This document shows positions 34,797 to 36,563 of a DNA stretch of 64,000 nt, one piece after another (position 1 is the stretch's first letter; each line of letters starts with the position of its first letter). Origin of the DNA: Waddliaceae bacterium (GTDB taxonomy: Bacteria; Chlamydiota; Chlamydiia; Chlamydiales; SLFE01). Under the pieces are notes generated by a model that made no database searches, was not told the origin of the DNA, and saw nothing but the letters and a program-made list of their open reading frames with translations. The translations under genes were made by a program, and so were the position numbers. The DNA lies in contig CAVYRW010000004.1 in the NCBI GenBank assembly GCA_963771045.1, forward strand, positions 1,312,001 to 1,376,000, in the 5' to 3' direction.

Positions 34797-35000
34797 ATCT
34801 TTTATCCTTCCTCGTTTTTGATTGTAAGAAAATATTGTACATCTTTTATTAGAAATTTTTCAAGGTCTACGTCGTTTCAGTAATTCCAAATTCAGGCTGG
34901 AGCTTACATTAGGCATGTAAATTTTACCTTGAATTGGCTTTGTTGCGTAATTAACCACAGAGCTCACAAGAGCGCACAGAGAGAATATGAGAGATTTGAT

Positions 35001-35945
35001 TTAAGCTGCTATTAATTCACTTTCAGGCATTCCCAGCTTTGTCATTATATTTAGTGCTTCACATTTTGCCCTTGATTCAGCCCTTTGGGTTTCCAGAGTT
35101 CTACTTCTTAAATCATTTCCAAAGAATCGTTTAAATCTAAACATGGCTGTTTCTGCAAGTGATCGACGATGATAACCTTTCAACTTTTTCCATAATTTTC
35201 TTGCATCATCATCACCTCCTAAACCTGAAATTTCCAGCAAACTGATATTCCGCATCTTCCAAGAAGGAGATATGTTTTCTCGAAAAACAGCATTCCTATT
35301 GGGTGGAATAATAGGAATTGAGCCGTGAACTACATTTGCAGCATAGCATCGCTTAGTATCATAAGCCCCATCTCCATATGTGCGCTTAACTGATTTCGGC
35401 ATTACCTCGAGAAGTTTTGGATACACTTCACAATCTGCAACGTTATTTTCAGTAAGAATTTCGAAAATAATTTCGTGAGAGTCAGGGCAGACTGCCAGAT
35501 GGAGCTTTCTCCATGTTCGCCTTTTACTGATTCCATGCTGCCTAACTTTCCATTCACCCTCTCCGTACACTTTCAAACCGGTTGAATCGATTACAATATT
35601 GGTGACTTTTTTTTTCGAAAGTTTCTTCAACTCTTGCCCCAACAACTTAGCTCTCCGACAAATTTGAGTATAAGAAGGAATCGATAAACCAACAGATAAA
35701 ATCATAACAAGAGATGTCAAAAATCCTTCGAGTGCTCTCAATGGAAGATGAAAAACCGATCGAATAATGAGCGCGGTGAGAATAGCGTCATCAGAATAGA
35801 GTTTTGGACGCCCCTTTTTTCCTATTTCTTTTGGAGCCATCCACTTATTGATAGCATCTTCAGAAAACCAAACAGTTATGCTTCCCCTTTGAATAAGAGA
35901 TTTGTTATAGTCGTTCCAGTTGCGAATGCGATATTTTGCCTTCAT
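35001..35945 (-). CDS. IS5 family (IS903 group) transposase
   Basis: NWNDYNKSLIQRGS, IDSTGLKVYGEGEW, WRKLHLA, DGAYD, GYHRRSLAETAMFRFK. Confidence 0.96.
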   Translation of the reverse strand: MKAKYRIRNWNDYNKSLIQRGSITVWFSEDAINKWMAPKEIGKKGRPKLYSDDAILTALIIRSVFHLPLRALEGFLTSLVMILSVGLSIPSYTQICRRAKLLGQELKKLSKKKVTNIVIDSTGLKVYGEGEWKVRQHGISKRRTWRKLHLAVCPDSHEIIFEILTENNVADCEVYPKLLEVMPKSVKRTYGDGAYDTKRCYAANVVHGSIPIIPPNRNAVFRENISPSWKMRNISLLEISGLGGDDDARKLWKKLKGYHRRSLAETAMFRFKRFFGNDLRSRTLETQRAESRAKCEALNIMTKLGMPESELIAA

Positions 35946-36029
35946 CTTGATCCTCCAATTTGTTGCAACTAAAAATTAGAGTATTAGGTATTTGTCGGCA
36001 AGCTCGCATTCGCCCTTTTTGGAGAAAAG

Positions 36030-36437
36030 ATGACTAGTACCCACACAACTGAAGAAGCCAACCAAAAAAGAAATGACCTTTTAACAGGGGAAATCATAGG
36101 TGCTGCGATTGAAGTTCATCGAAGATTAGGTCCAGGCTTGCTTGAATCGACATACGAAACTTGTCTTTGCTACGAGTTGAACCTTGCGGGTTTGAAAGTT
36201 AACCGGCAGATACCAGTACCTATTATTTATCGTGATAAAAAGCTAGACTCAGGCTACCGGATCGATATGATAGTGGAAGATAAGGTTATTTTGGAGATAA
36301 AATCTGTGGCCAATTTCTTGCCTGTTCATGAGGCCCAACTTCTATCCTATCTTAAGCATAATGGTGGTGGCAGAGGTTTGCTCATCAATTTCAATGTAAA
36401 ACTTCTAAAAAATGGGATTAGGCGTCTAATCATTTAA
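36030..36437 (+). CDS. GxxExxY protein (PD-(D/E)XK nuclease superfamily)
   Basis: AIEVHRRLGPGLLESTYE, RIDMIVEDKVILEIK, HEAQLLSYLK, GLLINF. Confidence 0.93.
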   Translation: MTSTHTTEEANQKRNDLLTGEIIGAAIEVHRRLGPGLLESTYETCLCYELNLAGLKVNRQIPVPIIYRDKKLDSGYRIDMIVEDKVILEIKSVANFLPVHEAQLLSYLKHNGGGRGLLINFNVKLLKNGIRRLII

Positions 36438-36563
36438 TTCCTCTCTCATAATCTCTCAGTGAGCTCGGTGGTCTCAGTGGTGATTTATGCAACAACGCCC
36501 CTTGAATTTAGGGTTTCCTCCGTTTAAAAAAATGCCAACGTTAAGATAGAAAATTATTTGTAG

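Follow-up and report, generated by a model that had tools for sequence, protein, structure and literature searches.

A 64,000-nucleotide stretch of a Waddliaceae bacterium contig (CAVYRW010000004.1), hereafter the window, contains a 1,564-bp insertion sequence of the IS903 group at positions 34936-36499, which lies between two copies of CCTTGAATT and carries two divergent genes (Table 1). From left to right, the element consists of an 18-bp terminal inverted repeat (TIR), a 41-bp arm, a transposase gene on the minus strand, 84 bp of intergenic sequence, a GxxExxY gene on the plus strand, a second arm in inverted orientation and the other TIR. The two TIRs are identical to each other at 14 of 18 bases. 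The initial annotation of this DNA had described the same layout, with 18-bp IS903-type TIRs followed at both ends by arms of three units that enclose divergent transposase and GxxExxY genes; read as quoted there, the arms are 41 bp long, and both proteins pass the cut-offs of their family models. A composite transposon can be ruled out, since the element has one transposase, one TIR pair and no two flanking IS copies. A sigma-70 promoter scan of the intergenic region found no consensus above chance. A sequence resembling the TIR core, TTGTTGCA, is located at 35959-35971, in a near-palindrome just upstream of the transposase start, and is partly kept in relatives.

Table 1. The passenger-carrying element, its second copy and an isolated arm doublet (positions in the window)
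Feature	Position	Strand	Remarks
9-bp target-site duplication CCTTGAATT, left copy	34927..34935	+	
IS903-type terminal inverted repeat, transposase-3′ end	34936..34953	+	14/18 to IS903B
GxxExxY-type arm: three CACNGAG-like units and ATGAGAG tail	34954..34994	+	6 bp from transposase stop
IS5-family, IS903-group DDE transposase, 314 aa	35001..35945	-	D120, D192, E265; Y258-R261-E265-K272
Divergent intergenic region, 84 bp	35946..36029	.	GGAG(G) ribosome-site-like motif ahead of each start
GxxExxY (PDDEXK_3) gene, 135 aa, predicted PD-(D/E)XK nuclease	36030..36437	+	E39, D79, E89, K91
GxxExxY-type arm, inverted relative to the first	36441..36481	-	3 bp past GxxExxY stop
IS903-type terminal inverted repeat, GxxExxY end	36482..36499	-	16/18 to IS903B
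9-bp target-site duplication CCTTGAATT, right copy	36500..36508	+	
Second, identical copy of the whole element	59438..61001	-	different 9-bp target-site duplication
Gene-less, TIR-free inverted doublet of the same arm family	8136..8229	.	CACAGAG arms; just past an ORF stop

The transposase scores 289 bits on the IS5 model NF033579 (cut-off 140) and is 44% identical to that of IS903B and 46% identical to those of ISSod12 and ISVa2 over 99% of its length. D120, D192 and E265 are conserved, and Y258-R261-E265-K272 is what we take to be the YREK motif. The TIRs fit the approximately 18-bp GGCTTTGTTG type; 14 of 18 positions in one and 16 of 18 in the other match the ends of IS903B, for which a plasmid record of E. 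coli was used. The dN/dS ratio of the transposase gene is 0.06-0.13 in intact, unsaturated pairs. With its 1,564 bp and two genes, as against about 1.05 kb and a transposase only, the element is a passenger-carrying variant of the IS903 group and not a canonical member.

The 2.57-Mb genome to which the window belongs (G000) contains 16 full copies of the element at 99.87-100% identity, one of which has a 1-bp deletion in the transposase gene. Perfect 9-bp target-site duplications (TSDs) flank 12 of the 16 copies, and all 12 are different. Movement of the whole unit had been proposed from two copies with different TSDs, and the 16 copies with 12 distinct TSDs show that everything enclosed by the TIRs is mobilised together. 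The element is real, active and recently amplified to 16 copies. Contigs from two salt-marsh DNA runs, neither of them flagged as a candidate source, cover the element and break off at its termini (34933-34941 and 36498-36499), where they have other flanks. Another genome of the same genus has nine near-full copies. G000 also contains one short internally deleted derivative (on C2), one fragment without ends and one hybrid copy (C4:1701314-1704285). The hybrid has one 9-bp TSD, is 78% identical to the element over its left 1.2 kb and 100% identical over its right 349 bp, and is interrupted by an IS256-like insertion; it is either a recombinant or an assembly chimera. RNA runs yielded two 217-base contigs of related sequence, 97-98% alike, which are not evidence of transcription of the element. 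The nearest named matches of the GxxExxY protein are Parachlamydiales and Chlamydiales records, so that an environmental representative of Chlamydiota is the likely host.

IS903 has a target preference, and its DDE enzyme alone moves it. The 12 TSD sites are AT-rich and weakly symmetric, with no arm close by, and an altered target choice by the passenger-carrying element was rejected on these grounds. Both the TSD length and the AT-rich targets are ordinary for the group, for which 9 bp is the tabulated value in PMC3281130. Five other IS5-type elements in the same genome (C4:48248-49138, 400009-400899, 956428-957318, 2230311-2231192 and 180807-181499) are 34-46% identical to this transposase; their ends are GGGTGTGTTGCC or GGCTGTGTTG, and the 220 bp inspected contain neither a passenger nor an arm.

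The GxxExxY protein scores 146.9 bits on TIGR04256 (cut-off 35) and 141.2 bits on PF13366 (cut-off 22), the latter being referred to in PMC3424549 as a family of unknown function. It belongs to a very large family, as 21,662 clusters at 50% identity match GxxExxY/PDDEXK_3 at E 0.001. In an alignment of 87 GxxExxY sequences, E39, D79 and E89 are invariant and K91 is near-invariant, and all four are kept in every IS-borne protein covering these positions; a GGG[RK] signature is also common to the IS-borne proteins. The structure model (pLDDT 94.5) has a PD-(D/E)XK fold, and a fold search with this model found restriction enzymes, Cas4 and Hjc resolvase to be nearest, the top matches being mostly PD-(D/E)XK enzymes, although the scores were moderate (Z of 7.7 at best; Foldseek E never below 0.001). 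A sequence search of solved structures returned nothing useful. GxxExxY is predicted from the model to be a PD-(D/E)XK nuclease with a restriction-endonuclease-like fold. Its tandem double-domain homologues (P0001-P0016, 190-295 aa) lack the D/ExK catalytic residues in the second domain in 8 of 8 cases displayed, and lack the LL of GPGLLE in the first. This loss of catalytic residues from the second domain suggests that GxxExxY acts as a dimer with one active site. Judged by dN/dS, the IS-borne GxxExxY gene is under purifying selection, with ratios of 0.03-0.16 in intact, unsaturated pairs; a decayed hybrid (0.36) and a near-identical pair (0.28) are outliers, and many distant pairs are saturated. 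The dS values of the two genes differ strongly within one element pair, in both directions, and this mismatch between GxxExxY and transposase points to module exchange between IS variants.

Each arm is a direct-repeat array of phased heptads, and the two arms are 79% identical as an inverted pair. By comparison, 3,000 random window pairs had a mean identity of 46% and a maximum of 67%, and 1,000 dinucleotide shuffles reached at most 71%. Single ends fold no better than shuffles (z from -0.6 to +0.8 for four end strands), and the arms were therefore rejected as individual hairpins; the two ends together do pair (-39.6 kcal/mol). Thus, the palindrome cassette of the initial annotation stands as far as the inverted arm pair is concerned, but a single arm is a direct-repeat array and not a palindrome.

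It is evident that the arms are associated with the GxxExxY gene and not with the transposase. We collected 110 GxxExxY loci, 30 from a search of 401 genomes of the phylum and 80 from a species collection, and left out five that were too short and four with an IS903-type transposase. At least two phased heptads are present beside the gene at 88 of the remaining 101 loci, a count that takes in six copies of one IS630 element (L033-L038) and L019, which has TIRs, and that describes the best-scoring relatives, biased to this branch of the GxxExxY family. The arms are on both sides of the gene, as an inward-facing inverted pair, at 62 of these 101 loci, and controls gave arms at 2 of 98 distal positions and in 0.25% of shuffles. 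The 110 transposase loci, on the other side of the comparison, comprise 13 with GxxExxY, 69 complete without it and 28 incomplete. Arms are absent from 68 of the 69 complete GxxExxY-free relatives; the exception, L119, has arms at both ends and keeps the last 10 GxxExxY codons, which identifies it as a deletion derivative. The element had been read as a chimera of an IS and a GxxExxY-plus-arm cassette, and the observed distribution bears this out: the arms travel with GxxExxY genes, and the opposite pattern, with arms in passenger-free relatives and none enriched at GxxExxY genes, is not what the 68 armless relatives and the 88 armed loci present. As far as sequence comparison goes, these results show that the arms and the GxxExxY gene originate from a cassette that is widespread, with no IS903 transposase, in both bacteria and archaea.

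Complete elements with the layout seen in the window were found at five loci (L112, L115, L142, L143 and L162), with transposases 68-100% identical, and cut or decayed armed elements agree with it. A TIR-plus-arm pattern occurs in 21 of the 401 genomes of the phylum (reversed control, 0 matches), and many of the matches are 70-250-bp derivatives of the form TIR-arm...arm-TIR, several of them with 9-bp duplications. One locus, L238 (G255:C2:151110-151830), has the order TIR-arm-GxxExxY-arm-(degenerate TIR) without a transposase, and its genome has seven TIR-plus-arm junctions and no match to this transposase. Deletions that begin at an arm edge, a possible footprint of cleavage, include the C2 derivative of G000 and L228, and most breakpoints in G249 are elsewhere. 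Neither an excised form nor an empty site of the arm-bounded cassette was seen. Searches for the fusion outside Chlamydiota did not find it in the viral, Pseudomonadota and plasmid sequences covered: 35 viral pattern matches had neither GxxExxY nor transposase, a looser pattern matched once in each of 10 of 201 Pseudomonadota genomes with neither gene at the eight loci fetched, and nine plasmid records matched pieces of the transposase only; the metagenome carriers are without taxonomy.

The cassette appears to have been captured repeatedly. The transposase tree (49 rows) places 13 armed elements in a single group (87/89) that also includes three arm-free sisters, and the armed L153 and L246 fall elsewhere. 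A single transposase clade for all armed elements was rejected (AU test, P = 0.027; with L150 forced in, P = 3e-8). L150, from a metagenome contig, has the GxxExxY gene in tandem before the transposase gene, with an arm doublet between the genes and none at the TIRs, and its transposase groups with passenger-free elements; by its arrangement and its place in the tree, it is a separate capture of the cassette. A 1,762-bp element of the IS630 family, which has TA ends, contains an entire arm-GxxExxY-arm cassette behind, and convergent to, its transposase gene (L033-L038/G606; for example L037:2331-4092), and is present in at least 28 full copies at 99.8-100% identity in one Waddliaceae MAG. Its arms surround the GxxExxY gene only. 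From these comparisons, IS903-like elements have acquired the cassette on two or more occasions and an unrelated IS630 element has done so once, although recombination between IS variants may explain part of the apparent multiple captures. This repeated boarding, IS630 included, indicates that the cassette is not tied to this transposase and makes a hitchhiker more likely than a partner of it.

These observations bear on a different role for the protein. TnsA assists TnsB in Tn7, a heteromeric transposase, and GxxExxY could likewise be a transposition accessory that binds the sub-terminal arms and helps to pair or process the ends or steers donor-site repair. That the arms abut both TIRs in the five complete elements, whose transposases are 68-100% identical, that TIR-plus-arm junctions recur in 21 of 401 genomes against no control match, and that short derivatives retain TIR and arm, some with 9-bp TSDs, would fit such a helper. 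TnsA has the same superfamily fold and is not among the fold-search matches listed for GxxExxY, a list from which a family may be missing. However, close relatives that lack the passenger but have the same TIRs also exist in several copies (at least five matches each in G034, G319 and G238), the TSD length and AT-rich targets are those of the IS903 group, the arms of the IS630-borne cassette enclose nothing but the GxxExxY gene, and those of L150 are remote from the TIRs. We give the helper role little credence. The likeliest reading of the cassette is that of a selfish module that hitchhikes, ahead of a helper dedicated to transposition.

Similarity is also maintained between the arms at the two ends of an element. 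When bases 19-60 of one end are compared with those of the other, identity is 0.79 within and 0.70 between six armed elements, a difference reached by 2 of 720 permutations, a figure that is overstated by the relatedness of the six elements; the same stretch is 0.48 identical in 68 arm-free elements. Stand-alone cassettes have arm identities of 0.81 within and 0.67 between. Within the limits of such alignments, these values show concerted evolution of the arm pair of an element. The same signal could arise without the enzyme, by gene conversion between the homologous ends. The arms could accordingly be inert relics kept alike by such conversion, and the gene could look conserved through repeated re-import from stand-alone cassettes. 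The closest pairs have a higher dS in GxxExxY than in the transposase (2.96 vs 0.45; 1.94 vs 0.94), two stand-alone GxxExxY genes nest in the passenger clade (support 94, in a weakly supported tree of 122 columns), and many copies decay to short derivatives, all of which would be expected of relics. Nevertheless, re-import would itself require an active cassette, the three-unit phasing persists at both ends over 30% transposase divergence, and the IS-borne proteins share the GGG[RK] signature and all catalytic residues. It therefore seems improbable that the arms are inert.

Arms of the same family are also found without a gene. A looser arm scan of G000 outside the IS found only one gene-less doublet (8136-8229) and one relic arm. 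Another genome, G405, has 73 arm-pattern matches, and all 20 loci that were fetched, picked from the listed pairs, are TIR-free hairpin doublets of 96-170 bp with the three-unit-plus-tail design of the element's arms. A stand-alone GxxExxY gene nested in the clade of the passenger is present in G405, and a search for an IS903-type transposase there gave no match. Gene-less doublets, genome-wide in G405, also occur in unrelated phyla. Purifying selection on the gene, the concerted evolution of the arms and the TIR-free doublets of G405 with its close stand-alone relative make it plausible that the arms are binding or cleavage sites of the GxxExxY protein, which is the reading we favour.

Could the passenger instead serve the host, as a defence (restriction-like) or addiction-type gene, with the arms acting as autoregulatory operators or 3′ RNA elements and not as cleavage sites? 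Purifying selection on a gene inside an IS and its restriction-enzyme-like fold would agree with this, as would the fact that each arm follows a stop codon at a distance of 3-6 bp and in the same orientation. Moreover, two IS903-like elements (L176 and L179) have an unrelated, divergent passenger of 183 aa in the same slot, 600 bp upstream of the transposase and without arms, which starts with a cysteine motif that is presumably SEC-C-like, so that this IS group ferries cargo. Yet the gene-less doublets in G405 and in unrelated phyla speak against a host function, no methylase or antitoxin is encoded in the element, the stand-alone Chlamydiota genes adjoin housekeeping genes (59 flanking ORFs at 32 loci), and it is hard to see what purpose an operator past the transposase stop would serve. 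A host-beneficial passenger is unlikely in our judgement, if less so than a transposition helper or inert arms.

Taking these observations together, we lean towards the view that the element is an IS903-group IS fused with a GxxExxY gene-plus-arms cassette, the latter being a hitchhiking second selfish module. The element itself would move by ordinary DDE cut-and-paste on the 18-bp TIRs with no need of GxxExxY, as is suggested by the behaviour of IS903 and by the multi-copy state of passenger-free relatives. At the origin of the fusion, the cassette likely landed inside one TIR, upstream of the transposase gene, and one arm was copied to the other end. It also seems rather probable, on comparative grounds, that the GxxExxY protein binds and nicks the arms on DNA, and that templated repair homogenises the arms and spreads or swaps the cassette. 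The protein, probably as a dimer with one active site, would bind the CACNGAG arrays on DNA and nick there or close by, and the arms would then be homogenised by repair templated on the partner arm or on a sister copy. The same repair would swap the GxxExxY gene between element variants and, elsewhere, seed gene-less arm doublets. A role at the DNA level is favoured by the anatomy of the IS, in which the transcript of neither gene would hold both arms. The presence of 16 GxxExxY copies yet only one doublet and one relic arm in G000 suggests that the arms are not self-spreading here, though the invasion is recent.

The element resembles IS903 on the outside and, by analogy, Ssn/NTS or RAYT/REP on the inside. 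It is like IS903/IS903B and other members of the IS5-family IS903 group (ISSod12, ISVa2, ISPam1 and ISPko1) in its transposase, 18-bp TIRs and 9-bp duplication; those elements are 1,050-1,057 bp long, however, whereas the 1,564-bp element adds a second, divergent gene and sub-terminal arms of 41 bp that lengthen the inverted repeat to about 60 bp. Transporter IS (tIS), described in PMC7986276 as IS with passenger genes, likewise have a passenger gene within one TIR pair moved by a single transposase. Unlike these, the element has a passenger that brings its own cognate repeat array, redistributed to both ends, and the same cassette recurs in IS903-like and IS630 elements. The Ssn proteins, presented in PMC11893778 as GIY-YIG nucleases with NTS/SRM repeats, share with the cassette a small single-domain nuclease gene, flanking cognate inverted repeats across phyla and gene-less copies elsewhere. 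GxxExxY differs from them in being a predicted PD-(D/E)XK rather than GIY-YIG nuclease, embedded here in an active DDE element, and its arms differ from NTS in being phased heptad arrays without a hairpin of their own. REP/REPIN sequences are associated in PMC8266576 with RAYT (TnpA-REP), a HUH/Y1 transposase, and are palindromic repeats. An analogy with REP/RAYT had been drawn in the initial annotation, and it holds for the architecture, an enzyme gene adjoined by short repeats, of which gene-less inverted doublets exist in intergenic DNA as well (G405). It does not extend to the enzyme class, as the two proteins of the element match only DDE and PD-(D/E)XK models and no HUH/Y1 enzyme is present, or to the repeat, as a single arm is neither a palindrome nor a hairpin; in addition, the GxxExxY gene is multi-copy here through being moved by the DDE transposase.

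No description of the element, the cassette or the arms was found in the open-access articles searched, though an IS catalogue could list the element, and the cargo system is apparently undescribed so far. A broader reading, which we put forward only tentatively, is that GxxExxY and its CACNGAG arms make up an undescribed class of selfish element built from a nuclease and its repeats, the third after RAYT/REP and Ssn/NTS, and that this class has boarded Chlamydiota DDE IS repeatedly. Here the arms enclose the transposase gene as well, so that the element would have two nested, independently driven layers, TIR and transposase outside and arm and GxxExxY inside, with the nuclease homogenising the ends and swapping the modules. 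The mechanism of the IS is ordinary and its cargo unusual. The element ties the GxxExxY gene and both candidate sites to one visibly mobile 1.5-kb unit, which makes hitchhiker, helper and defence roles separable. Likewise, DNA-level and RNA-hairpin roles of the arms are separable, because the arms lie behind different, divergently transcribed genes. If the 135-residue protein is indeed an arm-specific nickase, it would represent a new class of small sequence-specific nucleases, as Ssn did recently.

The window and its genome have further repeats and mobile-element remnants. At 44091-44157 and 54776-54807 there are members of another repeat/MITE-like family, which is abundant, with 79 short BLAST matches in the genome. 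The former is palindromic and adjoins an N-terminal relic of a GxxExxY gene, and similar relics cut by this family occur at C4:856787-856950, 887895 and 1968153. An IS256 transposase gene (36666-37913) lies 166 bp to the right of the element, followed by a serine-recombinase C-terminal piece (PF07508, PF13408) at 38735-39757. Two related stretches within 52139-54483, 1,364 bp apart and 73-75% identical, are likely paralogous genes, and a palindrome at 58715-58878 has 80-bp arms that are 83% complementary.
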